This document shows, piece by piece, positions 14,149 to 40,638 of a stretch of DNA of 40,638 bases (position 1 is its first letter; every line of letters begins with the position of its first letter). This stretch comes from Myxococcaceae bacterium (GTDB lineage: Bacteria > Myxococcota > Myxococcia > Myxococcales > Myxococcaceae), in assembly GCA_019686135.1 (NCBI GenBank), contig JADGHL010000037.1, positions 1-40,638 on the forward strand, read 5' to 3'. Below the pieces are notes generated by a model. That model was given only the letters and a program-made list of their open reading frames with translations, was not told the origin of the DNA and ran no database searches. The position numbers and the translations under genes were made by a program.

Positions 14149-16152
<2,004 letters not shown>

Positions 16153-23560: not shown

Positions 23561-23929
23561 CTACTCCCCGTCGGACTCGATCTCGTCGCCCTCTTCGTCG
23601 AAGTCCGGCGTGTTGGCGGCCTCCGCGCCGGGCGTCTTCCCGTCGCCCCAGTCTGCGGCGTTGAGCGCAGCCTTGAGGACCTGGCTGGGCCGGAACGTCA
23701 GCACCCGCCGCGCGGAGATCTCGATCTCCTTGCCGGTCTGGGGGTTGCGCCCCACCCGAGCCTTCTTGAAGCGAACCTGGAAGTTCCCGAAGCCGGAGAT
23801 CTTGATCTTGTCCCCGCGCTCGAGCGTCTCCTTCACGGTGTCGAACACCAGCTCGACGATCTCCGCCGACTCCTTCTTGGAGAAGCCGACCTTCTCGTAG
23901 ACGCCTTCGATGATGTCCGCCTTGGTCAT
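23561..23929 (-). CDS. ihfA: Integration host factor alpha subunit (HU/IHF family) with an acidic C-terminal extension
   Basis: The first ~95 aa are a canonical IHF-alpha (GFGNFQVRFKKARVGRNPQTGKEIEISARRVLTFRPSQVLK). The gene follows pheT as in the conserved pheST-ihfA arrangement. An extra ~27-aa Asp/Glu-rich tail is present. Confidence 0.85.
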   Translation of the reverse strand: MTKADIIEGVYEKVGFSKKESAEIVELVFDTVKETLERGDKIKISGFGNFQVRFKKARVGRNPQTGKEIEISARRVLTFRPSQVLKAALNAADWGDGKTPGAEAANTPDFDEEGDEIESDGE

Positions 23930-24004
23930 CCGGTTCCTCTGTGGTCCTGATCTCCCTGCCGCTTTTGGCAGGGTTCGCGCACAGGTGTCAACCTGCCGCG
24001 ACCA

Positions 24005-26449
24005 TTAGGCATTTTCTCCACGGAGGGCGGCGCCCAGGCGCTCGTTCACCTGCTCGACGATGCGCTTGTGCGCCTCGTTCACCTCGGCATCGGTGAGGGT
24101 GCGGTCCTCCGCCCGGTAGCTCAACGCGAACGCCAGGTTCTTCTTGCCCTCCGGGATGGGCTGGCCGGTGTACACGTCGAAGACGCGCGCGTCCTCCACC
24201 AACTTCCCGCCCGCCTGGAGGATCACCTCGCGCACCTCGGCCGCGCTCCGGGCGGCGTCGACCACCACCGCGAGATCGCGCAGCACCGCAGGGAAGCGGG
24301 TCAGCGCCACCGCCTTCGGGCGCAGCACCGCCGCCTTCTCCAGGCGCGCCACCTCCAGATCGAACAGGAACGTCCCTGACGGCAGATCGAGCGCCTTGGC
24401 CGCCGCCGGGTGGAGCTCCCCCAGCGTCCCCAGCGTCACCCCGTTGGCGAGGTACACCCGGGCGCTCGCGCGCGGGTGGTACGGCGCCATCTCCACCGGC
24501 GCGAACTTCGCGTCCTCGATCCCCAGCGCGCCGAGCACGACCTCCACCGCCCCCTTCGCGTCGTAGAAGTCGATCCGCGCATCCGGCGACGTCCAGTGCC
24601 GGCCTGCCCTGAGGCCCGAGAGCACGCCCGCGACGTGCAGCACCTCGCGCGCCACCGGCCGGTGCTCGTCTCCGCCGTCCTCGTTCTGCTCGTAGGTGCG
24701 GCCCCACTCGTACAGCCGGACGCTCTGGGCTTGATGCCGCACGTTGTGCGAGAGCGCCTGCAAGAGCCCCGCGTACATCGTCGTGCGCATCACCGACTGC
24801 TCGGCGGAAAGCGGGTTCTTGAGTGCGATCGCCTCGATGGGCTTGCCCAGAAGGGGCAGGTCGCGGAGCGTCAGCCAGCTCAGCTCCTTCGGCGAGACGA
24901 ACGAGTAGCTGACCACCTCCATGAACCCCGCGCCCGCGAGCGCAGTGCGGATCCGCTCCTCCACCCCGGTACTGGAGGGCTCCATCTCCAGCCGGGCGGG
25001 GGCGCGCGGCATCACGCTGGGGATCCGGTCGTACCCGCGGATCCGCGCGACCTCTTCGATCAGATCCTCCTCGCGGTCCACGTCCACGCGCCAACCGGGC
25101 ACCTCGAAGGTGGCCCGGGCCGCGTCCTCGGCCACCGCCTCGAACCCGAGCGCCCCGAGGATCCGCTTCGTTTCCTCCGCGGGCACGTCCACCCCGAGCA
25201 GCCCGCCCACGCGCGCATACGGCAGCGTCACGCGCCTGCGCGGCTGCGGCTTCGGGTACACGTCGATGGCGCCCCGGAGCACCTGCCCCCCGGAGAGCTC
25301 GGCGATGAGCGCCGCCGCGCGGTCCAGCGCCTTCGGCACCGCCTCGATGTCCGCCCCGCGCTCGAAGCGGTGCGAGGCCTCGGTGTGCAGCCCGTGCCGC
25401 CGGGCCGACCGCCGCACCGAGGACGGCTGGAACCACGCGCTCTCCAGGAGCACCCGCGTGGTCTTCTCCGTCACCTCGGAGTCGGCCCCGCCCATCACGC
25501 CGGCGATCGCCTGGGGACGGTCACGGTCGGCGATCACCAGGTCGTCCGGATCCAGCGCGCGCTCTTTGCCATCGAGCGTCGTGAGCTTCTCGCCCTTCTT
25601 CGCCAGCCGGACGACGATCTCGGGCCCCGCCAGCTCGTCGAGATCGAACGCGTGCAGCGGGTGCCCGTACTCGAGCAGCACGTAGTTGGTGACGTCGACC
25701 AGGTTGTTGATCGCCCGGATCCCGCAGGCCTTGAGGCGGTCCTGCATCCACTGCGGAGACGGCCCCACGCGGACGTTCTCGATGATCCGCGCCGCGTACC
25801 GGGGCGCGCGGTCCAGCGCATCGATGCGGACCTTCGCCCGATCGCTCGCCGCGCCACCGCCCTCCTTCAGATCCGCCGCGGGGTACCGGAGCGGCACGCC
25901 GAAGATGGCCGCCACCTCGCGGGCAATGCCCAGGTGCGAGAGCGCGTCGGACCGGTTGGGGGTGACGTTGACCTCGAACACCGTGTCGTCCAGCCCGAGC
26001 GCCTGGACGATCGGCAGGCCCACCGGCAGCGCGGGGTCGAGGATCATCAGGCCCGAGTGCTCGTCGTCGAGGCCCAGCTCGCGAGACGAACAGAGCATCC
26101 CGAAGCTCTCCACGCCGCGCAGCGTCGCCTTCTTGATCTTCACGCCCCCGGGCAGCGTGGTGCCCACCGTGGCGAGCGGCACCTTGTCGCCCACCTTGTA
26201 GTTCTTCGCGCCGCACACGACCTGCAGCACGCCGTAGGCGCCCGCGTCGACCCGGGTCACCGAGAGCTTGTCCGCGTTGGGGTGCGGGCGGGACTCGGTG
26301 ATGAGCGCCACCACCACGCCCTCCAGCCCCTCCCCGGCGCGGATCTGACCTTCGATCTCCAGGCCCGCCATGGTGAGCCGGTGCGCCAGCTCCGGCGGCG
26401 GCACCGCCGCGTCCGCGTAATCCGCCAGCCACTTCAGTGAGAGCTTCAT
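24005..26449 (-). CDS. pheT: Phenylalanine--tRNA ligase beta subunit
   Basis: The 814-aa product begins MKLSLKWLADYAD, the canonical PheT N-terminus, and has tRNA-binding, B3/4, B5 and FDX-ACB domains in order. The start shares one nucleotide with the pheS stop (TGATG). The 996-aa track ORF includes upstream antisense read-through. Confidence 0.9.
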   Translation of the reverse strand: MKLSLKWLADYADAAVPPPELAHRLTMAGLEIEGQIRAGEGLEGVVVALITESRPHPNADKLSVTRVDAGAYGVLQVVCGAKNYKVGDKVPLATVGTTLPGGVKIKKATLRGVESFGMLCSSRELGLDDEHSGLMILDPALPVGLPIVQALGLDDTVFEVNVTPNRSDALSHLGIAREVAAIFGVPLRYPAADLKEGGGAASDRAKVRIDALDRAPRYAARIIENVRVGPSPQWMQDRLKACGIRAINNLVDVTNYVLLEYGHPLHAFDLDELAGPEIVVRLAKKGEKLTTLDGKERALDPDDLVIADRDRPQAIAGVMGGADSEVTEKTTRVLLESAWFQPSSVRRSARRHGLHTEASHRFERGADIEAVPKALDRAAALIAELSGGQVLRGAIDVYPKPQPRRRVTLPYARVGGLLGVDVPAEETKRILGALGFEAVAEDAARATFEVPGWRVDVDREEDLIEEVARIRGYDRIPSVMPRAPARLEMEPSSTGVEERIRTALAGAGFMEVVSYSFVSPKELSWLTLRDLPLLGKPIEAIALKNPLSAEQSVMRTTMYAGLLQALSHNVRHQAQSVRLYEWGRTYEQNEDGGDEHRPVAREVLHVAGVLSGLRAGRHWTSPDARIDFYDAKGAVEVVLGALGIEDAKFAPVEMAPYHPRASARVYLANGVTLGTLGELHPAAAKALDLPSGTFLFDLEVARLEKAAVLRPKAVALTRFPAVLRDLAVVVDAARSAAEVREVILQAGGKLVEDARVFDVYTGQPIPEGKKNLAFALSYRAEDRTLTDAEVNEAHKRIVEQVNERLGAALRGENA

Positions 26450-27486
26450 CAGAACTGCCTCAGGAAACGGATGTCGTTCTCGAACAGCGTGCGCAGATCG
26501 TCGATGCCGTACCGCAGCATCGCCATCCGCTCGACGCCCATGCCGAACGCGTAGCCGCTGTACTTCGACGGGTCGTAACCGGCGGACCTGAACACGTTGG
26601 GGTGGACCATCCCCGACCCCAGGACCTCCAGCCACCCGGTCTGCTTGCACACGCGGCAGCCCTTGCCGGCGCAGATGACGCAGGAGACGTCCACCTCCGC
26701 GGAGGGCTCGGTGAACGGGAAGAACGAGGGGCGGAAGCGCGTCCGGGTGTCGGCACCGAAGAACGCGCGGACGAAGGCATCCAGGGTCCCCTTCAGCTCG
26801 GCGAAGGTGACGCCCTCGTCGACGAGCAACCCCTCCACCTGGTGGAACATCGGCGAGTGGGTGAGGTCGCTGTCGCGCCGGTAGACGCGGCCGGGCGCCA
26901 CCACGCGCACGGGCGGCTCTGTCTGGAGCATCGCGCGGATCTGCACGGGGGATGTGTGCGTGCGCAGAAGAACCGGCTGCGTCGACCGCACCCACGGGGC
27001 GTCCACGAAGAAGGTGTCCTGCATGTCCCGCGCGGGGTGGTCATGCGGGAAGTTGAGCGCCTCGAAGTTGTGCCAGTCCTGTTCAATCTCCGGGCCCTGG
27101 GCGATCTCGAACCCCAGCCGCCGGAAGATCTGCACGATGTCGTCCATCGTCCGGGTCACCGGATGGCGGTGCCCCGGCGGGATCTGCCGGCCCGGGAGGG
27201 TGACGTCGACCTTCTGGCCCTTGAGCTCCGCCTCCAGCTTCTTCGCCTCGGCGCGCTGCACCGCTTCGGCGAGCAGGCCCTCCAATTCGGCCTTGATCCG
27301 GTTGGCCACCTCCCCCACGCGGCGGCGCTCGTCCGGCGCCAGCTTCCCCATCCCGCCCAGAACGGCGCTCAGCTCGCCCTTCTTGCCGAGGTACTTGATC
27401 CGCAGCTCTTCGACGCGGCCCGGATCGTCCGCCCCGCCGATCTCCCGGCGCGCCGTCTCGGCGATCGCGTTCAGTCGGTCCTGCAT
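26449..27486 (-). CDS. pheS: Phenylalanine--tRNA ligase alpha subunit
   Basis: The 345-aa product has class II aaRS motifs (FRPSFFPFTEPSAEVDV, GMGVERMAMLRYGIDDLR) and an N-terminal coiled coil. Confidence 0.9.
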   Translation of the reverse strand: MQDRLNAIAETARREIGGADDPGRVEELRIKYLGKKGELSAVLGGMGKLAPDERRRVGEVANRIKAELEGLLAEAVQRAEAKKLEAELKGQKVDVTLPGRQIPPGHRHPVTRTMDDIVQIFRRLGFEIAQGPEIEQDWHNFEALNFPHDHPARDMQDTFFVDAPWVRSTQPVLLRTHTSPVQIRAMLQTEPPVRVVAPGRVYRRDSDLTHSPMFHQVEGLLVDEGVTFAELKGTLDAFVRAFFGADTRTRFRPSFFPFTEPSAEVDVSCVICAGKGCRVCKQTGWLEVLGSGMVHPNVFRSAGYDPSKYSGYAFGMGVERMAMLRYGIDDLRTLFENDIRFLRQF

Positions 27487-27509
27487 GGACGTGTGGCTCC
27501 TTCAAAGAC

Positions 27510-27541
27510 GAAAAAACGGGCTGCCCGCGAAGGCAGCCCGT
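27510..27541 (-). terminator. Rho-independent terminator after rplT (also positioned as a pheS leader hairpin)
   Basis: A perfect 10-bp stem ACGGGCTGCC/GGCAGCCCGT with a 6-nt loop is present. On the minus strand it is followed by TTTTTT. It sits between the rplT stop (27577) and the pheS start (27486). Confidence 0.55.
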
Positions 27542-27576
27542 CTCGAAAAGATCAGCGCTCCAACGCGCTTTCTGGC

Positions 27577-27924
27577 TCAGGCCGCCCTGGCGATGTTCGC
27601 CACGGCGGCAAAGCCCGCGGGATCGGCCACGGCGAGATCGGCGAGGATCTTGCGGTCGATGGCGACCTTCGCCTTCGCCAGCCCGGCGATCAGCCGCGAG
27701 TACGACAGCCCCACTGCGCGCGCCGCCGCGTTGATGCGGACGATCCACAGAGCGCGGAAGTTCCGCTTCTTCGCCGCGCGGTCACGGCTCGCATAGTCGA
27801 GCGCGCGCTCGACGGCCTGGTTCGCCCGCTTGTAGCAGTTCTTGCGGCGGCCCCGATAGCCCTTGGCGAGCTTGAGGATCCGATTCCGCCTGCGACGAGC
27901 CTTGACACCCTTCTTGACGCGCAT
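27577..27924 (-). CDS. rplT: 50S ribosomal protein L20
   Basis: The product begins [42 protein letters not shown], highly conserved L20 sequence. Confidence 0.9.
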
Positions 27925-27963
27925 CTGCTGCTCCTGAAACGAAAACCTGTTCGGACGGAAGGA

Positions 27964-28173
27964 CTAGTTCGCCCCGTAGGGGAACAACTCCTTGATGACC
28001 TTCTTCGCGTCCATCTCACGCAAATGGCCGGTGCCACGCGTGCGGCGCGAGTGCTCGGCGTTTTTGGAAAACGTGAAGAGGTGCTTCGCGTAGGCCCGCG
28101 CGAACTTCACCTGGCCGCTCTTCTTCACGTGGAAGCGCTTCTTCGCGCCGCTCTTCGTCTTCAACTTCGGCAT
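27964..28173 (-). CDS. rpmI: 50S ribosomal protein L35
   Basis: The product begins MPKLKTKSGAKKRFHVKKSGQVKFARAYAKHLFT. The track start is 11 codons upstream of the conserved MPKLKT. Confidence 0.85.
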   Translation of the reverse strand: MPKLKTKSGAKKRFHVKKSGQVKFARAYAKHLFTFSKNAEHSRRTRGTGHLREMDAKKVIKELFPYGAN

Positions 28174-28273
28174 GGAAACGACCCTCAAAGTCGGAAAGGC
28201 GCGCACATTTGCCTTGTCGCGGGACGACTGTCAACAAGGAGCGCTTGCGCCGATTTCCGGTTGCGGTGGCGGT

Positions 28274-28936
<663 letters not shown>

Positions 28937-28990
28937 GTGAAGCTACCTCCAATTGGGGCGTTGACCCGCCCGGGTTCGAAAAACCGCGGG

Positions 28991-29018
28991 AACATACTGT
29001 CCCACACCTCTGAGTCAA
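28991..29018 (-). promoter_or_regulatory. Candidate sigma-70-type promoter for infC, located in the thrS-infC spacer
   Basis: On the minus strand, TTGACT is followed by a 16-nt spacer and TATGTT, about 50 nt upstream of the GGAGG RBS. Confidence 0.3.
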
Positions 29019-29146
29019 GGTGAGCCGCTTGCTCTCCGCTCAGGGGTCGACGCAGCGCGCTGTGGCCTCAGTGAAGTAACGCGTGCCCTCGCCGGTGCTC
29101 TTCCGCCAACTCTGGGAGCACCGGCGCGCCGGCGGGCCATTCGGGC

Positions 29147-31081
29147 CTACGGCAGCGCCGCCTCCTTCGCCAGCAGCTCTTCGAACGCCTCCGCGCTCAT
29201 GAACTTCAGATCCTCGCCGCCGTAGCGCCGGGGCGAGACGCCCTTGTCGGCGACCTCGCGATCGCCCACCACCAGCGTGAACGGGATCTTGTGGATCTGC
29301 GCCTCGCGGATGCGGGCGTTGAGCGTCATGTTCCGTTCGTCCAGCTCCACGCGGAAGCCCCGGGCGCGGAGCCGGTCCCTCATCGCCCGCGCGTAATCGA
29401 GGTGGCGGTCGGCCACGGTGACGATCGTCGCCTGCACCGGCGCCAGCCACACCGGGAACGCGCCGGCGAAGTGTTCGATCAGGATGGCGATGAAGCGCTC
29501 GAACGACCCGTAGATGGCGCGGTGGATGACCACCGGGCGGTGCTCGGCGTTGTCCTCGCCCACGTAGGTCAGGTCGAACCGGTCCGGCGACGGCGCGAGG
29601 TAGTCCACCTGGAAGGTGCCCAGCTGCCACTTGCGGCCGATCGAGTCGGACACGTCGAAGTCGAGCTTCGGGCCGTAGAAGGCGCCCTCGCCCGGCTTGT
29701 GCTCCGCCTGTAGCCCGAGCGCATCCAGCGCGCCCTTGAGCGCGGCCTCGGCGCGATCCCACATCTCGTCGGAACCGAGCCGCTGCACGGGCCGGGTGGA
29801 GAACTTCACCGCGTACTTGAGCCCCACCGCGTTGTAGACGCGATCGAGCAGCTGCACGAAGCGCTTGGCCTCCTCGGTGATCTGCGACTCCATCGCGTAG
29901 ATGTGCGCGTCGTCCTGGGAGAACTGCCGCACCCGCGTGAGCCCGCCGAGCGATCCGGTGGCCTCGTTTCGGTGCAGCGGATCGAACGTGGAGAAGCGCA
30001 GCGGGAGATCGCGGTACGAGCGCTTCTTGAACCCGTACATCAGGTGGTGGGACGGGCAGTTCATGGGCTTGAGCGAAAAGTTGTGCTCGTTCCCCTCGCT
30101 GTCCCAGACGAGGAACATGTTCTCCTTGTACTTGCCCCAGTGGCCGGACTGCTCCCAGAGCAGCTTGGAGAACATGAGCGGCGTCTTCACCTCCTGGTAG
30201 CCGTTCTCGGCGGTGAGCTTGCGCATCCAGTTGGAGAGCACCGTGTAGATGGCCGTCCCGCGCGGCAGCCAGAACGCCGCTCCCGGCGCCGCGGGGTGGA
30301 ACTGGAACAGCTCGAGCTCCTTGCCGAGGCGGCGGTGATCGCGCTTCTTCGCCTCCTCTAGGCGTTTGAGGTATTCGTTGAGCGCCTTCTTGTCGAAGAA
30401 GGCCGTGCCGTAGATCCGCTGCAACATCGCGTTGCGCGAATCCCCGCGCCAGTACGCGCCGGAGGACGACAGAAGCTTGATCACCCCCACCTTGCCGGTG
30501 GAGGGCCCGTGCGGCCCGAGGCAGAAGTCGACCCAGTCGCCGTGCCGGTAGAGCGTCAGCGTCTTCGCGCCGCGGGCGACGATGTCCTTGACGATCTCGA
30601 CCTTGTATTTCTCCCCCAGCTTCTCGAAGAGCGCGATCGCCTCGTCCGCGCTCACCTCTTCGCGCACGAAGGGGAGGTCCTTCTGGATCTCCTTGTTCGC
30701 CTCCGCCTCAATCCGCTCCAGGTCCTCGGGCGTGAACGGCGTCTCTTTGGCGAAGTCGTAATAGAAGCCGTCCTCGATCGCCGGGCCGATCGTCACCTGC
30801 GTGCCCGGGAACAGCCGCTGCACGACCGAGGCGACGATGTGCGCCGCGTCGTGGCGGATCACCTCCAACGCCTCGGGGTTGCGATCCGTGAGGATCTCCA
30901 GCTTCCCGTCCTCGAGCAGCGGCCGGGCGAGATCCATCTCCTGGCCGTTGAGCCGGGCGACGACCGCCGCCTTCGCCAGGCCGGGGCCGATCTGCGACTT
31001 CACGAACTCATGGATGGTGGTCCCGCGGCGGATGGACTTCTGGGAACCGTCGGGGAGCGTGACCGTGACCTGATCTGCCAT
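29147..31081 (-). CDS. thrS: Threonine--tRNA ligase
   Basis: The 644-aa product has a TGS domain N-terminus ([13 protein letters not shown]), a class II core ([14 protein letters not shown]..., [26 protein letters not shown]) and an anticodon-binding C-terminus. Confidence 0.9.
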
Positions 31082-31120: not shown

Positions 31121-31162
31121 ACAAAAGACGTGGGCGGCACAGCCTCGTCGACCGTGCCGCCC
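31121..31162 (-). terminator. Intrinsic terminator downstream of tRNA-Val
   Basis: A perfect 9-bp stem GGGCGGCAC/GTGCCGCCC with a 13-nt loop is present. On the minus strand it is followed by GTCTTTTGT. Confidence 0.45.
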
Positions 31163-31371: not shown

Positions 31372-32070
31372 TCAGCGGCGGGGCTCCCCCGCCAGGCGGA
31401 GCGCCGTGCGGATCACCGCGTCGAACATCGCCGGGGTCAGCCGCCCCGTCTGCGTGTTCTGCTGGCTGACGTGGAAGCAGCCGAGGATGAGCGGCGCGTC
31501 GCCGATCCGGGCGATGGCCCCTTGCGCGAACTTCGGCCGCGGCTTCGGCAGCCGCTGGCCCGCCCGCTCCAGGTGGCGCAGCGTGGAATCCCAGGCGTGC
31601 GCGCCGAGCGCGAGGAACACCCTGGGGCGAAGGAGCGCCAGCTCGCGATCCAGCCAGTGGGCGCAGGTGCGGAACTCCTCTGGCGTGGGCGCGTTGTTCG
31701 GCGGCGCGCAGCGCACCGGCGCGGTGATGAAGACGTCATGGAGGGTCAGCCCGTCGTCGCGGCTGGTGCTGGTGGGCTGATTCGCCAGCCCGGCGCGGTA
31801 CAGGCGGGCGAAGAGGAAGTCCCCGCTCCGATCGCCCGTGAAGAACCGCCCGGTGCGGTTGCCTCCATGCGCCGCCGGCGCCAGGCCGATGATCACGATC
31901 TTCGCCTTCGGATCGCCGAAGCCCGGCAGAGGGCGTCCCCAATAGGTCTGATCGCGGAACGCGCGCCGCTTCTCGGTGGCGACCTTCTCCCGCCAGGCGA
32001 CCAGCCGCGGACAGGCGCGGCAGGTGATGATCTCCGCATGAAGTCGGGCGAGGGCGTCGCGCGTCTGCAC
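31372..32070 (-). CDS. Uracil-DNA glycosylase superfamily protein, Fe-S type (family 4/5; GLAPA motif suggests family 5 UDGb-like)
   Basis: An N-terminal Cys pattern is present (CRACPRL), followed by a motif-A-like IIGLAPAAHGGNRTGRFFTGD and a C-terminal HVSQQN-type motif B. Family 4 has GE(A/G)PG at this position, whereas GLAPA is the family 5 signature; that distinction is from memory. Confidence 0.7.
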   Translation of the reverse strand: MQTRDALARLHAEIITCRACPRLVAWREKVATEKRRAFRDQTYWGRPLPGFGDPKAKIVIIGLAPAAHGGNRTGRFFTGDRSGDFLFARLYRAGLANQPTSTSRDDGLTLHDVFITAPVRCAPPNNAPTPEEFRTCAHWLDRELALLRPRVFLALGAHAWDSTLRHLERAGQRLPKPRPKFAQGAIARIGDAPLILGCFHVSQQNTQTGRLTPAMFDAVIRTALRLAGEPRR

Positions 32071-32131
32071 GGAGTGGATCTATCGCGCGAAAGCCCACAG
32101 AGGCGAGGCACGATTCCGTTCCCACGGGCGG

Positions 32132-35100
32132 CTACCGGGCCGGTTCCGCGGGCGGGGGGATCGCCTGCAACAGCTGCAGCGCTTCGTTGACGTGCTGCCA
32201 CACCTGAATGGCGCGCAGCGATCCCCCGCCCTCCTCCTTGAGGCTGCGGCGCGCCATGCGGGCCAGCGGAGCGAGCGCGCGCTGCACCAGCTCCACCTGA
32301 CGGTCGTAGGCGGCCGGATCCGGACGGGCATCGGGCGCGGGCGCGCGGCGCACCGCCTCCTGCAGCACCTCCGCGGACAACGACGTGGGACGTTCGGCGA
32401 TCGCCCGCAGCACCTCTTCGAGTCGCATCAGGTACGGCGTCAGATCCGGTGCGGCCGGTCCTTCCGCGCGCGGCGCCTCCTGCGCCCGGGCTGGCTGCGC
32501 CGCCGCCTTCGCCAGCTCCAGGAGCGCGGCATGGAGGGCGTCCAGCTTCATCCCCAGCGCGGTGAGCGCGACCGAGGACGGCGCGACGTCCGGCGCGCGG
32601 GCAAAGGGCGTCTCCCCCAGCGCCGCAGAGGCCTGCGACACGGCGTCGCGGATCCGCCCGAGCTGCTGTTCCAGCGCAGAGAGCCCGCCGGTGACCCGCG
32701 CCACCGGATCGTCCTCCCGCCCGCCCAAGAGCTGCAGCCGCGCCCAGCTCCGTTTGATTTCCTCCCACCGCGCCCGCTGTTCCGGGGTCAGTTTCCCGCG
32801 CAGCTCGGCCAGCTTGAGCAGGTTCTGCTCCGCACCGGTGGTGAGCGTCTGCGCCTCGCCGGCGTAGTGATCGTCGATGACCCGGTCCAGCTCCTCGTCG
32901 GTCATCGCCGATACGACCTTGTCGGCGATCTTCGCCATGTTCCGGTAGCTGCCCTGCAGCTTGAAGGGCGGCTCGGTGCGGAACCGGTCGTCCTGCGAGG
33001 CCGAGGCGATGTACGCCTGGTTCACCTTGAGCAGCGTCTGCTGCACCTTGAACAGCCGCTGCAGCACGGCGGTGATCTCCTGCACCTCCACCGCCGACCA
33101 GGCGTACGACAGATCGGTGAGCGGGATCTGTTCGCCCTGGGCCATCCGGATGAGCTTCCAGGTGTCCTTCGGATCGCGCCCGGCGAGCGGCGCGGTGACC
33201 GGGTTGGAGGTGAGCGCGTTCTCCACGTAGCTGAGCGCGAACAGCTCCTCCCGTCCGCCGAGGATCTCGCCGAGGTTGTAGGTGTCCGCGCGGTTGGCGA
33301 GCATGTCCGGGATCCGGAAGCGCTCGCCGGACTCGGTGTACGGGTTGCCCGCCATCACCACCGCGAACTTTTTGCCCCGAAGGTCCCAGGTGCGGCTTCG
33401 GCCCTTCCAAACGCCCTCCACCTTCCGCTGCCCGTCGCACAGCGAGATGAACTTCTGCAACAGCTCGGGCGAGGTGTGCTGGATGTCGTCGAGGTAGAGC
33501 AGCACGTTGTTGCCCATCTCGAAGGCGAGGTTGATCCGCTCCACCTCCTGCCGCGCCGCGAGGTTGGGCGCATCCTCCGGATCCAGCGAGGTCACCTCGT
33601 GCCCCAGCGCGGGGCCGTTCACCTTGACGAACACCAGCCCCAGCCGCGCGGCCACGTATTCGATCAACGTGGTCTTCCCGTAGCCGGGCGGGGAGATCAC
33701 GAGGAGCAGGCCCATCCGGTCGGTGCGCTTGGTGTCGCCGGCGGTGCCCAGCTGCTTCGCGAAGTTCTTGCCGATGAGCGGCAGGTACACTTCGTCGATC
33801 AACCGGTTGCGCACGAAGCTGGAGAGGATCTTCGGCTTGAGCTCGTCCACCCGGAGGCGGCGGCGCTCGGCGTCGAGGATCTCCCGGAGCCGGGCCCGGA
33901 AGGCGCGGTACTTCGGAGCCCCCGTGCGCAGGTAGCCAAAGAGCCGCTCCGAGAACTCGTCCAGGGCGAGCGTGAGCTTCTGGCCACTGATCCGCGGGTG
34001 GTTGCCGAGCAGCCCGTCCAGCTCCACGACCGTGCGCGCGCTCGAGACCTCGCGGTCGATGGCCCGGTCGCACAGGATGATCGCCTCGGCCTCGGCGATC
34101 TCCGCGCCGGCGCCCTGCTTCGCCGCGTCCGCCCACGCCGTGAGCCACTCGTGCACGAGCGCGCGCTGTTCGCGCCACCGCCCGTTCAGCTGGCGCAGGT
34201 CCTCCTCCAGCTCCCGGCGGGTCCCGGCGCGTTCGAGGTGTGCCCAGAAGGCGTCCTTGTGCGTCACCGACGCCTGGGCGGTGGTGAAGCGTGGCTGCTC
34301 GCGGGTGAGCTCTTCGACGAGGTAGCGGGCGGCGAGCTGCGCCTCGTCCCCGCTACACGGCGCGCCCACCCGCTCCGCGAACGCGCAAAGCTCCGGCGTC
34401 AGCTCCTCCGCCAGCGACAAAAGCGCCGAGGTCCGCGCGAGGTGATCGCGCAGCCGGCCGTAGCTCACCGCACGGCGATGCCAGATGGCGCGCGCGTGCT
34501 CGTCCTTGTGCCACGCCCAGAAGAGCTGCGCGTGCGCCCGGGCCACAGGTCCGAAGCGCAACAGCCCCGCGGTCTGCCGGAGCGCCAGCACCGCGGCGAG
34601 GATCTTCGCCGCATCCGCGTCGTGGACCCCGCGCTCGTAGCCTTCGTCGTAGCGCTCCTGCGCGTACGAGCGGACGAGCGGCAACAGCGCCTCGGCGTCC
34701 GCGCTCGAAGGCAGCGGCGGTGTGCGCCCGTCCTCCGCGTCGAAGAGCATCGACGCGGCCAGGTACTCGCCGCGGTAGATCGCCTTCGTCTCGGAGACCA
34801 GGTGCTGGTCCCAGAACGGCCGCGTGTCCTCCAGCGCCTCCAGGTTCAGCGGCTCATAGAAGTCCGTCCCGGTCAGATGCAGCGCCAGCGCGCCATCGCG
34901 TGGCACCACGGTCAGCTCCAGCGGCTGGGTGTTGACGTTGAACCGGTGCGGCCCGAGCTTGATGACGCTGGCCCCGTCCTCGAACAGGTCCTGCTTGTCG
35001 CGCAGGATGCGGGCGGCGTCCTGCTTCGTCTGCTTGAGGCGGGAGGTGAGCTCGTCGGCGCGCACCGAGTCGCCCAGCGAAAGGAGCTGTTCGGCGATGG

Positions 35101-37555
35101 CCTGGGCCTTGTGCACCATCGCGTCCGAGGCGAACCAGGCGTTGAGCTCGTCCTCGGTCTTGAAGGTCTCCGCGCGCCGCTTCAGCCCCTGAAGGATCCG
35201 GTCCGCGGCCTCGAAGAGGTTCTGCGCGCGGCGCTGCCGTTCGTCGAGGAGCTGCTGCCGCTTCGCCCCGAACGCCTCGTGCAGCTCCTCGCGCTTCTTC
35301 GCCAGCTCGGCGACGAACTCGTCCAGCTCCCCGAAGCGGCCCTCGAGCTCCTCCAGCTGCACCATCAGCCGGGAGAGTTGCTCGTCGCACTTCTCCGGCG
35401 TGTCGCTCTGGCCGATCGCGCTCTCGATCGCCTGGCCGAGCAGCTTGAACTGGGCGGCGAACTCAGCGCGGCCTTCCCGGCCGGCGATCTCCTTGCGGCG
35501 CGCCTGCACCGTGGCGCGGACGCGGTTGAGGTGGCTGAAGACCTCGCTGATGCCCTCGAGGATCTTCGCGCGCGCGACCGGGTCGCCCACCTGCAGCTGC
35601 CCCACCACCTCCGCCAGCACGTTGAGCCCGGCGGAGGTCTGCTCCAGCTCGGAGGTGATGGGGACGAGATCCGCGCTCCGCTCCGCCTTCTGACCTGCTT
35701 CGAGCAGCGCCCCGAGCTTCGCGGTCAGGGGCGCCAGCGCGTCCTTGTCGAGCAGAAAGCTCACGCACGCCTGCGAGAGCACGTCGAAGTGCGCCTGGGT
35801 CGCCCGCTCCAGCTCGGCGATGCGGTTCAGATCGACGTATCGGACCTCCTTGAGGGTGATGAGGTGCCCGCGGTGCCGGCGCAGCCCATCCAGCGCCTCC
35901 ATGAACTCCGACACCGAGGTGAGCGAGTCGGGGAGCACGCCGTCCACGCGCCGGGCCTGTTCGGCCTCGGCCTCGGCGAGGACCTCGCGCGCCTTCTGCT
36001 TGAGCGCCTGGACCTTCTCGAACTCGGCGACGATCAGATCCGCCGAGCGGCGCAGGTCCTCCACCGGCTGGGCGAGGTTCGTCTCCGGGTTGCCCAGCCA
36101 GTGGTAGCCGTCCAGCATCCGGGTGCAGGCGGCGATCAGATCCTCGAACGCGCGGCGGCTGGTGTGCTCCGCCTCCGCCATCCGCTTGATCGTGTAGGCC
36201 TCGGAGATCCCCCGCACCAGCTCAGCGTTACCGATCTTCGAGAGGAACGATCCGTCGGCCGGCTTCGACTGCGCGGCGTGCTCGGCCGAGACGAACGGCG
36301 TCTGCCAGATCTGCACCGGGTGGACGCGCTGCGGCTCGTCGCCGGCGGAACGGAAGACGATCATCTTTCCGTCGCCGAAGAGCGAGTAGCCGTGACACTG
36401 AATCGGCGTGGCCACCTCGCGGCGAACGAGGTTGTACGGCAGCAGCACGTACCGGCCCTCGTTGGGCTCGAAGAAGATGTAGAGGACGTCCTCGCCGTTG
36501 GGCGAGCGGATGGCGCGGCGGAAGATGAGCCCTTCGGGGCGCTCGTCGAAGACCTTGTAGTCGCCGGTCTGCAGGTAGTAGCCGCCGGGGAAGATGATCC
36601 CCTGGTCCTCGGGGAGCTGGATGCAGGCGTTGCCGATCGCGTCGATCCGCACCACGTGGCGGGTGCGGGTGTTGAAGACCAGGTACCGCCAGGTCTCTTC
36701 GCGGAAGGGCAGCACCTTGAGGAGGATCAGCGTGCCGACCTTCGCATAGTGGATCTGCGCGTCGTCGAGCGACTGGTTCTTGTCCTCCACCTCCTCCCGG
36801 TAGATTCCCAGCCCGTCCTCGGTGTTGTTCTCCACCTTCACGGTGAGATCGCCGCCCACCGTCTCCACGAACACCTCGTTGAGGATGTTGACGTGCGGGT
36901 GGCGGCCGCGGACGAACTGGTCGCGGCCGGTGGGGATCCACTCGAAGTCGTGTGACGGCGGGAACACGTTCTCCCGCTCGCCCGCGTTGTCGATGTAGGT
37001 CGCGCGGCCGGACGGATCGAGGTTGAAGCGGAAGACCTTCACGTCGCGGGCGGACTCGCCCACCTGGAAGACCATCAGCAGCCGGCCATCGAGGTGCCGC
37101 AGGTAGGACAACCGCGTGCCCTTGTAGTAGCGGTACAGCTCCTGGAAGTCCTTCACGAAGCGCGGGTCGGCGAGGAAGCCGCCCGCCTCGGTGGCCGGGA
37201 CCTCGGAGAGATCGAACCCGTCTGCGGTGGGCTCGAACCGGTGGAGCGACATCACGTCGGAGACCTGCGTCTCCGACTTGAGCCCGATGAAGACGTTGAA
37301 CCCGAACAACAGGTGCCGGCCCACCGACTTGATGTCGCGGGGCACGCAGTTGTGCTCGGTGCGGACGCGCTCGTTTCCGAGGATCGCCAGCTCGGCGCCG
37401 GAGAAGAGCTGCTTGCGGCGCTCGTTGAGCGCGTCCGCGCGCGCGCCCAGCTCCTTCGCGTGGGCCAGAAGGCGCGCGCGGATCACCTCATAGGAGCCGC
37501 CGTCCAGCTCCGGGCCGGCGCTCGCGGCCTCCCCCTGCGGCTGCTCGGTGGCCAT
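32132..37555 (-). CDS. Giant (1807 aa) multidomain protein with a single MoxR/dynein-type AAA_5 ATPase module; function unknown
   Basis: Walker A is LLVISPPGYGKTT (DNA ~33668-33685). Walker B is VLLYLDDIQH. MoxR-like sensor motifs are present (AGNPYT...RIPDMLANRADTYNLG). There is a ~480-aa N-terminal beta-rich region, a ~650-aa helical/coiled-coil middle and a ~440-aa helical C-terminus. A GAGG RBS overlaps the flotillin stop. The plus-strand 1587-aa ORF is an antisense artefact. Confidence 0.8.
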   Translation of the reverse strand: MATEQPQGEAASAGPELDGGSYEVIRARLLAHAKELGARADALNERRKQLFSGAELAILGNERVRTEHNCVPRDIKSVGRHLLFGFNVFIGLKSETQVSDVMSLHRFEPTADGFDLSEVPATEAGGFLADPRFVKDFQELYRYYKGTRLSYLRHLDGRLLMVFQVGESARDVKVFRFNLDPSGRATYIDNAGERENVFPPSHDFEWIPTGRDQFVRGRHPHVNILNEVFVETVGGDLTVKVENNTEDGLGIYREEVEDKNQSLDDAQIHYAKVGTLILLKVLPFREETWRYLVFNTRTRHVVRIDAIGNACIQLPEDQGIIFPGGYYLQTGDYKVFDERPEGLIFRRAIRSPNGEDVLYIFFEPNEGRYVLLPYNLVRREVATPIQCHGYSLFGDGKMIVFRSAGDEPQRVHPVQIWQTPFVSAEHAAQSKPADGSFLSKIGNAELVRGISEAYTIKRMAEAEHTSRRAFEDLIAACTRMLDGYHWLGNPETNLAQPVEDLRRSADLIVAEFEKVQALKQKAREVLAEAEAEQARRVDGVLPDSLTSVSEFMEALDGLRRHRGHLITLKEVRYVDLNRIAELERATQAHFDVLSQACVSFLLDKDALAPLTAKLGALLEAGQKAERSADLVPITSELEQTSAGLNVLAEVVGQLQVGDPVARAKILEGISEVFSHLNRVRATVQARRKEIAGREGRAEFAAQFKLLGQAIESAIGQSDTPEKCDEQLSRLMVQLEELEGRFGELDEFVAELAKKREELHEAFGAKRQQLLDERQRRAQNLFEAADRILQGLKRRAETFKTEDELNAWFASDAMVHKAQAIAEQLLSLGDSVRADELTSRLKQTKQDAARILRDKQDLFEDGASVIKLGPHRFNVNTQPLELTVVPRDGALALHLTGTDFYEPLNLEALEDTRPFWDQHLVSETKAIYRGEYLAASMLFDAEDGRTPPLPSSADAEALLPLVRSYAQERYDEGYERGVHDADAAKILAAVLALRQTAGLLRFGPVARAHAQLFWAWHKDEHARAIWHRRAVSYGRLRDHLARTSALLSLAEELTPELCAFAERVGAPCSGDEAQLAARYLVEELTREQPRFTTAQASVTHKDAFWAHLERAGTRRELEEDLRQLNGRWREQRALVHEWLTAWADAAKQGAGAEIAEAEAIILCDRAIDREVSSARTVVELDGLLGNHPRISGQKLTLALDEFSERLFGYLRTGAPKYRAFRARLREILDAERRRLRVDELKPKILSSFVRNRLIDEVYLPLIGKNFAKQLGTAGDTKRTDRMGLLLVISPPGYGKTTLIEYVAARLGLVFVKVNGPALGHEVTSLDPEDAPNLAARQEVERINLAFEMGNNVLLYLDDIQHTSPELLQKFISLCDGQRKVEGVWKGRSRTWDLRGKKFAVVMAGNPYTESGERFRIPDMLANRADTYNLGEILGGREELFALSYVENALTSNPVTAPLAGRDPKDTWKLIRMAQGEQIPLTDLSYAWSAVEVQEITAVLQRLFKVQQTLLKVNQAYIASASQDDRFRTEPPFKLQGSYRNMAKIADKVVSAMTDEELDRVIDDHYAGEAQTLTTGAEQNLLKLAELRGKLTPEQRARWEEIKRSWARLQLLGGREDDPVARVTGGLSALEQQLGRIRDAVSQASAALGETPFARAPDVAPSSVALTALGMKLDALHAALLELAKAAAQPARAQEAPRAEGPAAPDLTPYLMRLEEVLRAIAERPTSLSAEVLQEAVRRAPAPDARPDPAAYDRQVELVQRALAPLARMARRSLKEEGGGSLRAIQVWQHVNEALQLLQAIPPPAEPAR

Positions 37556-37564
37556 GGCGCAGCC

Positions 37565-39622
37565 TCAGCGCGTGGGCCGGGGCTCGACGTTGGAGGACTC
37601 GCCTGCGACTGGGCCCCCGCGCTCCGCGGCCATCTTCGCCATCAGCGCGGCGAGCGCGACGTGGGACGCGTCCTGCGCCACGCCCGGCCGGGAGAGGATC
37701 TCCTTGAGATCGTCCGGGAGGCTGCGGTCGCCCTCGAGGTACGGCTTGAGCGCGGTGCGCAGCGCGCCGGAGCTGTCGATCGCCGCGTCTGCGGACTGGC
37801 CGAGCGTGACCGCCCGCATGAACTGGTCGAAGAACTTCCCCTCGCCGCCGACGATGTGGATCTTCGCGTTGCCCATCGCCTCGGACATGACCTGCGCCTG
37901 GCTGGAGGCGATCTGCGTGCGCGCGGTGATCGACGCCAGCTCCACCTCCTTCTCCTTCTGCAGCCGGAGCCGGTACTCCTCGTGCGCGCGGGAGGCCTCG
38001 TCCAGCGCCTTCATCGCCTCCGCCTTCTCGGCGATGCCCTTCGCCTCGGCGACCAGCTTCTCCTGGATCGCCACCGCCTCCGCCAGGCCGCGCAGCTTGA
38101 TCGCCTCCGCCTCGGCCTGCTCCACGCGCACCTGCGCCAGCCCCTTCTCCACGTCGCCCGCGGCCTCGGCCAGCTTCCGCTCCTTGATCACCCGGGCCTC
38201 GGCCAGCCCCACCTTCTCGATCGCCACCGCGTCGGCCTCCTTCACCCGCACCTCGCCCAGCCCCTTCGCGCTGTGCTCGGCCTGGATGCCCTCGGCCAGC
38301 CGGATCTTCGCCTTCGCCAGCCGGTCCGCCGCCTCCATCTCCGCGTCGGCGAGCTGCAGCTTCTTGCGCGCCTCGATCTTCGTGACCTCCTCCGAGGCCT
38401 CGGCCGCCTTGATCTCCTTGACCAGAAGCTCCTGCGCCTCGGCCTCGGCGTGGACGATGGCCGCCTCCTTCTGGCGCTTCGCCTCGGCGATGAGCCGCAG
38501 GTCTTTGATGTTCTCCTCCTCCTGCGCCACCGTCTTGTCGACCGCAATCCGCGTGCGCACCACGTCGGCGATCGCCTTGCGCTCCACCTCCAGCGCCTTC
38601 TCCTTGGCGATCCGCTGCAGCTCCACCTCGCGCTCGCGGGCGATCGCCTCGAGCTGACGATCCTTTGCGACCTTCTCGCTCTCGATCCCGACGATCCGCT
38701 CGCGGTTCTTCTGCGCCACCTCCACCTGGCGCAGCTTGTTCTGGTCGTTGATCAGGATCTCCTCTTCCGCCTTGATGCGCGCGAGCTGGGCGCGGGCGTG
38801 CTCTTCCGCCTTGACCCGTTCGGTCTCCGCCGCCTCGCGGGCGCGGATGGTCTCGATCTCACGCTTCTGCTTCGCCTCCGCCTCCGCCTGCTGCCGCTCG
38901 AGCGCCAGCACCGCCTCGTTGGCTTCGACGTTCTGCTTGGTGATGGCCTTGCGCTCGTTCTGCCGGAACTCGTTGGTGAGGATGTTCTGCGCCGCGGTCA
39001 TCTCGGTGATTTTCCGGATGCCCTGCGAGTCGAGGATGTTGTCCTTGTCGAGCAGCTCGATCGGCGTCTGCTCGAGGTAGTCGATGGCGACGTCCTCCAG
39101 CATGTAGCCGTTGAGGTCCTTGCCGATGACCTCGACGATCTGATCCTTGAAGTGGTCGCGCGACTTGTAGAGGTCTTCGAAGTCCATCCGCTTGCCCACG
39201 GTCTTGAGGGCTTCGGAGAACTTGGCGACGAACAGATCCTCCAGCGTCTTCGGATCCGAGGCGCGCGCGCAGCCGATCGACTGGGCCACCTTCAGCACGT
39301 CCTCCTCGGTCTTGTTCACCCGCACGAAGAACGCGACCTTGATGTCCGCGCGGATGTTGTCCTGGCAGATCAGCCCTTCCTTGCCGCGCCGGTCGATCTC
39401 GATGGTCTTCAGCGAGATGTCCATCACCTCGGCGCGGTGGATGACCGGCAGCACCAGGCCGCCGTTGAAGGTGACCTTCACGTCCCGGACGCCGTTGATG
39501 ATGAGCGCCTTGCCCTGATCCACCTTGCGGTAGAGCTTGACCACCAGCCAGGACATCCCGAGCGCGAGCACCACCAGGGCGGCCGCGCTGCCACCGACCA
39601 GGACAATCGTGTTGTTATCCAT
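37565..39622 (-). CDS. Flotillin-like SPFH/band-7 protein (YqiK/FloT-like) with a long Ala/Glu/Lys-rich coiled coil
   Basis: An N-terminal TM helix is followed by YRKVDQGKALIINGVRDVKVTFNGGLVLPVIHRAEVMD, the flotillin signature. An SPFH domain and EA-repeat-like coiled coil follow (AEAEAKQKREIETIRAREAAETERVKAEE...). ATG 39622 (MDNNTIV) is preferred. A GTG at 39682 is the alternative start. Confidence 0.8.
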   Translation of the reverse strand: MDNNTIVLVGGSAAALVVLALGMSWLVVKLYRKVDQGKALIINGVRDVKVTFNGGLVLPVIHRAEVMDISLKTIEIDRRGKEGLICQDNIRADIKVAFFVRVNKTEEDVLKVAQSIGCARASDPKTLEDLFVAKFSEALKTVGKRMDFEDLYKSRDHFKDQIVEVIGKDLNGYMLEDVAIDYLEQTPIELLDKDNILDSQGIRKITEMTAAQNILTNEFRQNERKAITKQNVEANEAVLALERQQAEAEAKQKREIETIRAREAAETERVKAEEHARAQLARIKAEEEILINDQNKLRQVEVAQKNRERIVGIESEKVAKDRQLEAIAREREVELQRIAKEKALEVERKAIADVVRTRIAVDKTVAQEEENIKDLRLIAEAKRQKEAAIVHAEAEAQELLVKEIKAAEASEEVTKIEARKKLQLADAEMEAADRLAKAKIRLAEGIQAEHSAKGLGEVRVKEADAVAIEKVGLAEARVIKERKLAEAAGDVEKGLAQVRVEQAEAEAIKLRGLAEAVAIQEKLVAEAKGIAEKAEAMKALDEASRAHEEYRLRLQKEKEVELASITARTQIASSQAQVMSEAMGNAKIHIVGGEGKFFDQFMRAVTLGQSADAAIDSSGALRTALKPYLEGDRSLPDDLKEILSRPGVAQDASHVALAALMAKMAAERGGPVAGESSNVEPRPTR

Positions 39623-39712
39623 CGTGTTCGGACCTCGCGATCGCGTGAAGGAGACAGCGGACAGGACCGCGCTTCGTAGCACGATCCGGGAGAAAGACGC
39701 CCGAAGGGCCCG

Positions 39713-40495
39713 TCAATTGCGTGCCGCGGACCGGGAGGACCGCGACAGGTGCGCGCGCGCCATCGCCTCGGCGAGCCGCGGATCGCGAAGCTGACTCACT
39801 TCTTCCGGGAGCAGCCACTCCACCGGTTCGATCTCGTAGGCTTCCTTCTGCTTGTCGTACTCGAGCAGGAGCACCTGGTCGCCCTTCTTCAGCGTGTTCT
39901 CCCGGGTGCAGAAGATGGGGAGCACCAGCCCCGCGCCCCCGTCCTCGAGGTGCGCCTGACCGAACTTCGCGTCCACGCGAAGGGAGGAGACAATGGCGAC
40001 CTTGCCGAGGAGGTGGCGGCGCTTCGGTGCAGTGCGGATGGTGAAGAGCGGCCTGAGCGGTCGGGCGGTCACGCTGGAGAGCACGAACGCAGAGACCAGC
40101 GCCAGCACGAGAATGAGCCCGCCGCCGATCCACGGACCGAGAAATCCACCGAGCGCTGGGCCCAAAAACCACGCGCCCAGCATGGAGGTGATCCACCCCC
40201 AGACCGTGAGGAAGGTCACGATCATGGTGGCGGGGACCGTGCCGAACCCCAGCGCTTCGAGGAGCGCGCCCTTCCCCTCCAGCCCGTCGTGGACATGCGC
40301 GTGCGCGTCCGCCACGCCCGCCTTCGCGTCGATCCCGTCGATGAGCCCCGCCTTCGCGTCCAGCGCGCCGTCGCCGCCCAGCTCGATGCCCACCGCGCCC
40401 ACCAGCACCAGCAGCCAGTAGACCAGCACCACGATCAGCAGCGTCGTGAAGATCGCCGTCGGGAAGCTGAACGCGAGCGCGAGGAACGTCGACAC
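39713..40495 (-). CDS. NfeD-like / YqiJ-like inner-membrane protein (multi-TM N-terminus, C-terminal OB-fold-like domain)
   Basis: It sits upstream of and co-oriented with the flotillin gene, as in yqiJ-yqiK and nfeD-flotillin pairs. Several TM helices are present. The C-terminus LLGKVAIVSSLRVDAKFGQAHLEDGGAGLVLPIFCTRENTLKKGDQVLLLEYDKQKEAYEIEPVE resembles the NfeD beta-barrel. The start is a GTG. Confidence 0.6.
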   Translation of the reverse strand: MSTFLALAFSFPTAIFTTLLIVVLVYWLLVLVGAVGIELGGDGALDAKAGLIDGIDAKAGVADAHAHVHDGLEGKGALLEALGFGTVPATMIVTFLTVWGWITSMLGAWFLGPALGGFLGPWIGGGLILVLALVSAFVLSSVTARPLRPLFTIRTAPKRRHLLGKVAIVSSLRVDAKFGQAHLEDGGAGLVLPIFCTRENTLKKGDQVLLLEYDKQKEAYEIEPVEWLLPEEVSQLRDPRLAEAMARAHLSRSSRSAARN

Positions 40496-40638
40496 GGGCC
40501 GGAATTCAGCACGCCGCCGCCGGCAGGGGAAGCCGGCCCCGGCGCGGCGGCGCGTCGTGGCCGGTGGTGGAGCCGGTTGGGACTACGTCCGCGCCGCCCG
40601 GCGATTGCGTTCACGAAACGCATGCGGGCTGGGGATCG

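Follow-up and report, generated by a model that had tools for sequence, protein, structure and literature searches.

What joins a flotillin gene to the gene of an 1807-residue ATPase that begins almost exactly where the flotillin ends? The question is raised by contig JADGHL010000037.1 of a Myxococcaceae bacterium (assembly GCA_019686135.1), a stretch of 40,638 bp and ~69% G+C that was analysed whole and is called the window here. Near one end of it, genes for a membrane protein, a flotillin, a giant protein and a uracil-DNA glycosylase (UDG) follow one another on the minus strand, and an earlier note, made from the sequence alone, had taken all four for a membrane-associated module. We are highly confident that the first three are a unit, a cassette that encodes a YqiJ-like protein with three transmembrane (3TM) segments, a flotillin and a giant of the DUF3686 family. 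We also lean, with moderate confidence, towards an explanation of the whole locus as a widespread three-gene cassette, the abbreviated form of an operon described by Ravi et al. (below), which would work by using ATP to remodel a flotillin scaffold under membrane stress. All four genes have open reading frames (ORFs) at the coordinates where the earlier note had placed them:

39713-40495, minus strand: gene 1, YqiJ/YuaF-type membrane protein, 260 amino acids (aa); ORF
37565-39622, minus strand: gene 2, flotillin (YqiK/FloT type), 685 aa counted from the ATG; ORF
37556-37567, minus strand: flotillin/giant junction, with a TGA stop, an overlapping GAGG and 9 nucleotides (nt) from stop to ATG
32132-37555, minus strand: gene 3, giant protein (Pfam DUF3686 family), 1807 aa; ORF
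31372-32070, minus strand: gene 4, UDG, 232 aa; ORF

Because the G+C content at third codon positions (GC3) was 0.90-0.95 in all four, these ORFs are typical of real genes in a contig with 69% G+C. For the flotillin gene, an alternative GTG at 39682, upstream of the ATG, is also open; the ATG itself (39622) has a GAGG 8 nt upstream. At the flotillin/giant junction (TGAggctgcgccATG) the flotillin TGA occupies 37567-37565 and is overlapped by the GAGG, and the ATG of the giant gene at 37555 lies 7 nt past TGAGG. This is the arrangement that the earlier note had read as translational coupling.

The case for a unit is carried by other genomes. In a scan of one genome per species, at least 583 genomes were found to encode a relative of the giant, and the linkage counts that follow come from the best 80 loci. 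Relatives of the giant at E<=1e-10 numbered more than 7000. DUF3686 comprised 782 clusters at 50% identity (E<=0.001), and because its full-length members are all 1,590-2,036 residues long, the family has a single architecture. The best 80 loci came from Myxococcota, Actinomycetota (including Nonomuraea, Amycolatopsis, Micromonospora and Nocardiopsis), Gammaproteobacteria (Cellvibrio, Paraglaciecola), Planctomycetota, Acidobacteriota and Eremiobacterota, together with single metagenome-assembled genomes (MAGs) labelled Alphaproteobacteria, Burkholderiales and Clostridia, and their giants were 48-74% identical to that of the window. Three loci were truncated at contig edges, leaving 77 of the 80 testable for flotillin; 75 of these encoded one, 48-65% identical to the window's. 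It lay directly upstream of the giant gene and on the same strand in all loci but L023, which has a 6.4-kb gap. A YqiJ-like gene was present at 58-69 of the 80 loci, varying with the query, and stood upstream of the flotillin gene in most. Gaps between flotillin and giant ran from -1 (a TGATG overlap, seen in two loci) to a few hundred nt, and were mostly <150 nt. Even four distant members of the family (33-37% identity) have a gene of ~205-245 aa and a Band_7 gene of ~673-683 aa directly upstream; for the fourth, the contig holds the C-terminal part of the flotillin only. Adjacency of giant and flotillin, on which the earlier note had staked its module, is thus conserved in close and distant relatives.

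This gene order recurs in dozens of genomes and is shared far beyond chance. Pairwise identities of the giants and of the flotillins rose together (r 0.94, Mantel p 0.001). Linkage is near-obligate from the giant to the flotillin and not in the reverse direction, since E. coli yqiJK occurs without a third gene. Because cassette flotillins from different phyla are still 48-65% identical, comparison of their sequences points to a distinct and tightly constrained subfamily. Across Myxococcaceae genera the cassette was present throughout, in the manner of a core gene. Thirteen plasmid, megaplasmid or chromid records also carry it, among them pQBR103 of P. fluorescens SBW25, megaplasmids of Streptomyces and Deinococcus and the second replicons of Vibrio and Photobacterium. 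Two Proteus mirabilis records held as plasmids in PLSDB (4.08 Mb) are evidently chromosomes; the N-terminal 500 residues of the Proteus mirabilis relative are 55% identical to those of the window's giant.

Does the fourth gene belong to the unit? A gene of the UDG superfamily does lie where it had been placed, ~60 nt downstream of the giant gene: the distance from giant stop to UDG start is 61 nt, and the product matched PF03167 (E 5.5e-30) while scoring well below the cut-offs of the NCBIfam family-4 models. Its Cys 17, 20, 121 and 136 are compatible with an Fe-S site, and by its motif (GLAPAAHGGNRTGRFFTGD) and cysteines it looks nearer to family 5 (UDGb) than to family 4. No UDG was found at any of the 80 related loci, which places the gene outside the module to which the earlier note had assigned it. 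Neither clustering of flanking ORFs at the 80 loci nor a Pfam census of 95 immediate neighbours revealed a conserved fourth gene on either side. The UDG is an unrelated chance neighbour of the cassette. A hairpin scan found no terminator-like hairpin between the giant gene and the UDG, and a strong one beyond it:

31132-31162, minus strand: terminator-like hairpin 3' of the UDG, 13 pairs, 10 of them G-C; strong

With no hairpin before the UDG and a strong hairpin after it, the gene may sit on the cassette transcript here, by an accident of position. A search for σ70-type promoters found none anywhere in the region, the 143 nt ahead of gene 1 included, a result that is uninformative for a myxobacterium.

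What, then, are the first two products? From their sequences we read genes 1 and 2 as a yqiJ-yqiK-type pair, as had been proposed. Hydropathy gave about three hydrophobic segments in the gene 1 product (residues 3-42, 78-96 and 114-147), followed by a soluble C-terminal domain (~160-235) with the conserved pattern LVG..C.V.TG.VD..FGQA...DGGAGL...VR......L.RGD.AL...YD. A profile of 28 orthologues aligned with E. coli YqiJ over the transmembrane (TM) and C-terminal regions (hhalign 92.5%, E 4.8e-7), and Pfam YqiJ_N was matched by two of the 28 and by the Cellvibrio orthologue at E 6.9e-5. NfeD (PF01957) was matched neither by the gene 1 protein or its C-terminal 179 residues (E<=10) nor by any of the 28 orthologues (E<=0.01). 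Of the label NfeD/YqiJ-like that the earlier note had given to gene 1, the YqiJ half therefore stands: the profile ties the protein to YqiJ (DUF1449) and not to the NfeD model, and NfeD-like would be true only loosely.

The N-terminal membrane anchor of the flotillin (residues 3-32), its one hydrophobic segment by hydropathy, is followed by an SPFH/Band_7 domain (~33-180), then by a long coiled-coil region rich in Ala and Glu and by an extension at the C-terminus. Its N-terminal 231 aa matched Band_7 (PF01145) at E 1.7e-13 (51.5 bits, cut-off 23.6), and it was 29% identical to E. coli YqiK across 435 aa (E 1e-37); chains of human flotillin-1 matched weakly. Pfam searches with the full-length flotillin and YqiJ-like proteins gave no match even at E<=10, and for the flotillin we suspect, as a guess, that its long repeat region rich in Ala and Glu caused the miss. 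Against the NCBIfam FloT equivalog model NF058507 it scored 20.8 bits (cut-off 700), and against the Pfam Flot C-terminal domain PF15975 E was 0.61. These comparisons identify the gene 2 product as a flotillin homologue and not a FloT equivalog.

The giant protein is soluble, with no hydrophobic segment by hydropathy, whereas both of its partners have TM segments. Pfam placed PF12458/DUF3686 on residues 35-485 (E 6e-205), PF25472/DUF7902 on 605-689 and PF00004 above its cut-off. Two AlphaFold2 models were built from 21-sequence alignments assembled from homologue substrings; residues 1-870 were modelled at a mean pLDDT of 85, and residues 850-1650 at a pLDDT of 84 and a pTM of 0.71. Together with alignments they give the following map of the protein:

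Giant residues 22-51: long helix preceding the β-propeller (model)
36302-37387, minus strand: predicted β-propeller of ~seven blades, giant residues 57-418, the bulk of DUF3686 (AlphaFold2 and Foldseek)
34985-36286, minus strand: stacked long helical bundles, giant residues 424-857, containing DUF7902 (605-689)
33851-34975, minus strand: orphan middle domain, giant residues 861-1235 (AlphaFold2 model)
32996-33730, minus strand: single AAA+ module, MoxR/AAA_5 clade, giant residues 1276-1520 (model, structure comparison, motifs)
32681-32995, minus strand: conserved helical domain after the AAA+ module, giant residues 1521-1625 (model; motifs RTEPPFKLQGSYRNM and TLTTGAE.NLLKL)
32135-32680, minus strand: variable Ala/Pro/Leu/Arg-rich helical tail, giant residues 1626-1807 (composition, alignment)

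Foldseek comparison of the propeller with the PDB returned β-propellers exclusively (WD40, prolyl-oligopeptidase, clathrin heavy chain, IFT-A and Elp1), with E values down to 1.8e-5 and low TM-scores, and this region has neither a P-loop nor another nucleotide-binding motif. The name "DNA repair ATPase", carried by thousands of database entries, is on these models an annotation error, as the label sits on the predicted β-propeller (residues 35-485, window 36101-37453). In the middle domain, a helical domain lies between two small β units, the first of them a β-sheet; the DEGYERG.HD.D motif of the middle domain is invariant, and searched alone against Pfam this domain had no match at E<=1. The tail falls outside what the alignments indicate as the conserved core: it was 13% identical with 49% gaps over 77 loci, many orthologues lack it or have nothing there that can be aligned, and actinobacterial and gammaproteobacterial matches to the giant stop near residue 1640-1650. 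Weak matches join the tail to the amphipathic repeats of apolipoproteins A-I and A-IV (E ~0.002-0.02).

The AAA+ core is highly conserved. Across the same 77 loci, which span several phyla, it was 80% identical to the window's, with 85/165 near-invariant columns, against 60% and 71/364 for the β-propeller and 66% and 30/105 for the helical domain after the module. The module has a Walker A (SPPGYGKTT, K1294), a Walker B (LYLDDIQH, D1356-D1357), a β-hairpin ahead of sensor 1, sensor 1 itself (MAGNPY, N1404), a candidate arginine finger (ANRAD, R1422) and a lid at its end; GYGKTT of Walker A, GNP of sensor 1 and the NRAD arginine were invariant at all 77 loci. Structure comparison gave MoxR-type modules as its nearest relatives, which supports placement of the modelled module in the MoxR/midasin/dynein clade. 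The description of the giant as an AAA_5 ATPase in the earlier note thus survives as to structural class but not as to the Pfam model, since the AAA_5 score fell below the gathering cut-off (20.8 vs 22 bits). A PDB sequence search with the giant family profile was uninformative, returning just P-loop snippets (RuvB, NVL, Rpt3) and apolipoprotein-like matches to the tail. Among all these searches the giant matched no well-characterised family of known, unrelated function, and the name "DNA repair ATPase" lacks support.

Has such an operon been seen before? The earlier note knew of no described flotillin operon with an ATPase of this kind; one is in fact on record. Ravi, Anantharaman, Aravind, Gennaro et al. 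2024 (mSystems; PMC11237479) describe an operon of YqiJ/YuaF, flotillin and a β-propeller AAA+ protein as a partner of PspA envelope-stress systems, in an extended form with a CesT/Tir-PspA dyad and sometimes PLD, and in an "abbreviated" form without these. The window shares with that operon a flotillin with an N-terminal hydrophobic segment (3-32), Band_7 and an Ala/Glu-rich region, a giant with a helix (22-51), a β-propeller (57-418) and an AAA+ module (1276-1520), and a 3TM YqiJ/YuaF-type protein in the same operon. Unlike the extended form, it has three genes alone visible, and only 143 nt (40496-40638) separate gene 1 from the contig end upstream of it, so the window is unable to show what precedes the cassette, such as a PspA dyad. 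What is visible fits the abbreviated form. The extended form is matched gene for gene by Cellvibrio sp. OA-2007, with a co-oriented run of DUF2170 (YjfI type), PspA/IM30, YqiJ-like, flotillin, giant, rhomboid and PLD genes, whose giant is 48% identical to the window's over ~1,700 residues.

The treatment by Ravi et al. (PMC11237479) is brief and purely computational, and gives no ATPase clade, structure, linkage statistics or experiment. In the literature searched we found no experimental work on the operon, and nothing relevant on DUF3686 or PF12458, on flotillin together with "DNA repair ATPase", or on MoxR together with flotillin; the classic survey of SPFH proteins is silent on any ATPase partner. 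To their account the present analysis adds the assignment of the ATPase to the MoxR clade, its Asp-Asp Walker B and a domain map of the giant; it also shows that linkage is near-obligate from giant to flotillin, leaves the UDG out of the unit and exposes the misnomer.

Genes of membrane stress recur beside the cassette in several lineages. At three loci related to that of Cellvibrio, PspA lies directly upstream and a rhomboid gene directly downstream. On pQBR103 (L089, NC_009444.1 85452-100867) the cassette directly follows a PspA-rhomboid-DUF2491-DUF350-DUF1190-glutathionylspermidine-synthase cluster like E. coli yjfJKLMC, and is itself followed by an MvaT/MvaU gene. In an unrelated metagenome lineage a convergent PspA gene comes directly after the cassette, in another a rhomboid gene lies directly upstream, and in two further lineages TelA lies downstream. 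The nearest relatives of the window have other genes ahead of the cassette, for example one for an O-methyltransferase.

How might the three proteins work? A remodelling ATPase tethered to a membrane scaffold, as the earlier note had suggested, stays the best reading, and it is one that we infer. The flotillin would be held by its N-terminal hydrophobic anchor and would form oligomers on the cytoplasmic side of the inner membrane by means of its SPFH and coiled-coil regions; there the OB-like C-terminal domain of the YqiJ-like protein may stabilise the assembly, as in S. aureus FloA-NfeD. Onto this scaffold the giant would dock by its β-propeller and helical-bundle arm, bringing the three proteins into physical contact, and it would probably assemble a MoxR-type ring through its single AAA+ module. 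ATP would be spent on remodelling the scaffold or its clients, that is on loading, releasing or extracting membrane proteins, or on assembling or disassembling the flotillin lattice under stress. The giant would thus give an ATP-dependent arm to a flotillin holdase that otherwise works without ATP. By analogy with FloA-NfeD we advance this specific mechanism, a soluble giant on a flotillin/YqiJ scaffold whose MoxR-type ring remodels scaffold or clients in membrane stress, as a tentative proposal, less probable than the broader explanation of the locus.

Several observations weigh against this reading. At two Sorangium-type loci, L012 (Sorangium sp. So ce176) and L013 (a MAG), no flotillin or YqiJ-like gene lies within ~10 kb upstream of the giant; they are the only clear exceptions among the 77 testable loci. 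The correlated identities of giant and flotillin show co-inheritance as a unit and not interaction as such, and a correlation of this kind would be expected of any two genes passed on together. PspA, rhomboid and TelA are minority contexts: PspA, the commonest of the suggestive neighbours, was found in 5/95 immediate neighbours, four of them from one gammaproteobacterial clade, and none of the three genes stands beside the cassette in the window's close relatives. MoxR-family ATPases normally act with a VWA/MIDAS partner. No such partner was conserved in the flanks or listed among the 25 most frequent neighbour families, which argues against a classic MoxR role. Walker B ends in Asp-Asp instead of the canonical hhhhDE, and both Asp residues were invariant at the 77 loci; because of this substitution the giant might act less as a motor than as a slow switch. 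No Ar-Φ-Gly pore loop was evident between β2 and α2 (NGPALGH), and this, with the Asp-Asp Walker B, argues against a threading unfoldase.

A more elaborate version of scaffold remodelling goes further than these data and strikes us as doubtful. Here a MoxR-type ring of giants of ~1.2 MDa would cap a flotillin/YqiJ cage, or sit inside it, on the cytoplasmic face, as the bacterial counterpart of HflK/C-FtsH or SLP2-PARL-YME1L. With ATP it would pull out or reset membrane proteins, or take apart polymers of flotillin or of the ESCRT-III-like PspA in membrane repair. If true, it would be the first dedicated motor of flotillin microdomains and would connect flotillins mechanistically with the PspA system.

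The rhomboid genes invite another explanation, in which the giant is the energy supply of a membrane proteolytic hub: the flotillin would corral substrates, and the AAA+ protein would pass them to a separate protease such as a rhomboid. Mitochondrial SLP2-PARL-YME1L offers a parallel to such an SPFH proteolytic hub. SPFH cages around AAA+ proteases are established for HflK/C-FtsH (PMC13220708). A rhomboid gene directly downstream of the giant in four gammaproteobacterial loci, directly upstream in an unrelated metagenome lineage and just upstream on pQBR103 would fit, but rhomboid is missing from most loci, including the window and its close relatives. The giant moreover has neither a protease domain nor a TM segment, its canonical pore loop is not evident, and ATPases of the MoxR clade are not known as protease partners. 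We think a proteolytic hub unlikely.

Less probable again is a maturation chaperone of MoxR type, in which the ring would serve one specific membrane enzyme complex by activating it or supplying its cofactor, in the way of CbbQ/CbbO with Rubisco and NorQ/NorD with nitric-oxide reductase, with the flotillin serving only to localise it. The clade assignment is what such a role would build on; however, the flanks of the ~80 loci have no conserved VWA/MIDAS partner and no conserved gene for a possible client enzyme, and the giant, ~7x as large as ATPases of the MoxR type, has a propeller and a helical arm that are foreign to them.

An anti-phage or conflict system, with a membrane-anchored sensor or effector and an NTPase, had also been offered by the earlier note, and we find it very improbable. 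A patchy distribution across phyla with 50-60% identity between them suggests horizontal transfer, some copies are on megaplasmids, and a few neighbours (3-4/95) carry AAA_21, NACHT or AAA_16. Against this, a search of the four proteins with PADLOC-DB 2.0 gave only three matches, all to the coiled coil or P-loop of the giant and none meaningful (E 0.0045-0.0073, 13-14 bits), no copy was found in 50,697 phage records, and the cassette includes no nuclease, toxin or other effector domain. Its behaviour as a core gene across Myxococcaceae genera and its surroundings tell the same way. In M. stipitatus metabolic genes lie on either side, with one VWA gene nearby at that site only, and in the window the cassette stands beside a translation cluster (23561-31081):

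29147-31081, minus strand: thrS, downstream of the UDG
28274-28786, minus strand: infC, translation cluster
27577-27924, minus strand: rplT, translation cluster
26449-27486, minus strand: pheS, translation cluster
24005-26440, minus strand: pheT, translation cluster
23561-23929, minus strand: HU/IHF-family gene, end of the translation cluster

On the PADLOC result, the phage collection and this housekeeping neighbourhood, which is not a defence island, we rejected the defence hypothesis. Elsewhere in the window, genes of the α-glucan pathway encode a GlgE-type maltosyltransferase (14149-16152, plus strand) and a GlgB branching enzyme (19204-21474, plus strand).

Weakest is the view of the giant as an SMC/Rad50-like DNA-repair ATPase that forms one functional operon of four genes with the adjacent UDG, which we consider barely credible and already largely refuted by neighbourhood and fold: PF12458 is titled "ATPase involved in DNA repair", NCBI uses the name "DNA repair ATPase", and the UDG follows by 61 nt with no terminator-like hairpin before it and the strong one (31162-31132) after it, but UDG is absent from 80/80 related loci, the fold of the PF12458 region is that of a β-propeller and lacks a P-loop, the sole ATPase is a MoxR-clade AAA+ module and not an ABC-type SMC head, faint LmuB and RuvB matches are confined to the coiled coil or P-loop, and domain searches of the giant detected no DNA-binding domain.

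The cassette matters because the role of bacterial flotillins is still debated, and here a flotillin subfamily is nearly always encoded with its own highly conserved ATPase of 1,600-2,000 residues. It offers an experimental handle on flotillin function in tractable hosts (Myxococcus, Cellvibrio, Proteus and P. fluorescens SBW25 with pQBR103), and pQBR103, a well-studied megaplasmid, is a ready experimental system for it. Placement among MoxR, midasin and dynein narrows the plausible mechanisms, and a widely propagated annotation as a "DNA repair ATPase" is corrected for a giant with no detectable link to DNA.

Set beside known systems, the cassette resembles each in part. E. coli yqiJ-yqiK and B. 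subtilis yuaF-floT have the same order of genes from the same two families; unlike the cassette, E. coli has no third gene, with sibD/ibsD following yqiK, and the flotillin of the cassette is longer than YqiK (685 vs 553 aa). From the MoxR family (CbbQ, NorQ, RavA) and the AAA_5 modules of midasin and dynein the giant differs in having a single AAA+ module placed C-terminally in 1,800 residues, in its missing VWA/MIDAS partner, in its Asp-Asp Walker B and in its AAA_5 score below cut-off. Compared with HflK/C-FtsH, the giant is soluble and comes from another AAA+ clade, it has no TM anchor or M41 protease domain, and the scaffold of the cassette is a cytoplasm-facing flotillin; like HflK/C-FtsH and SLP2-PARL-YME1L, the cassette couples an SPFH scaffold genetically to an AAA+ protein, with a rhomboid in some clades. 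In S. aureus, FloA-NfeD is an ATP-independent holdase in which the OB-like domain of NfeD binds to the coiled coil of the flotillin and keeps its oligomers stable (PMC11222466). That system differs from the cassette in its reported independence of ATP, in having no dedicated ATPase and in its short, SPFH5-type FloA, and it shares with the cassette a flotillin and an OB-domain membrane partner, the products of the operon's first two genes.

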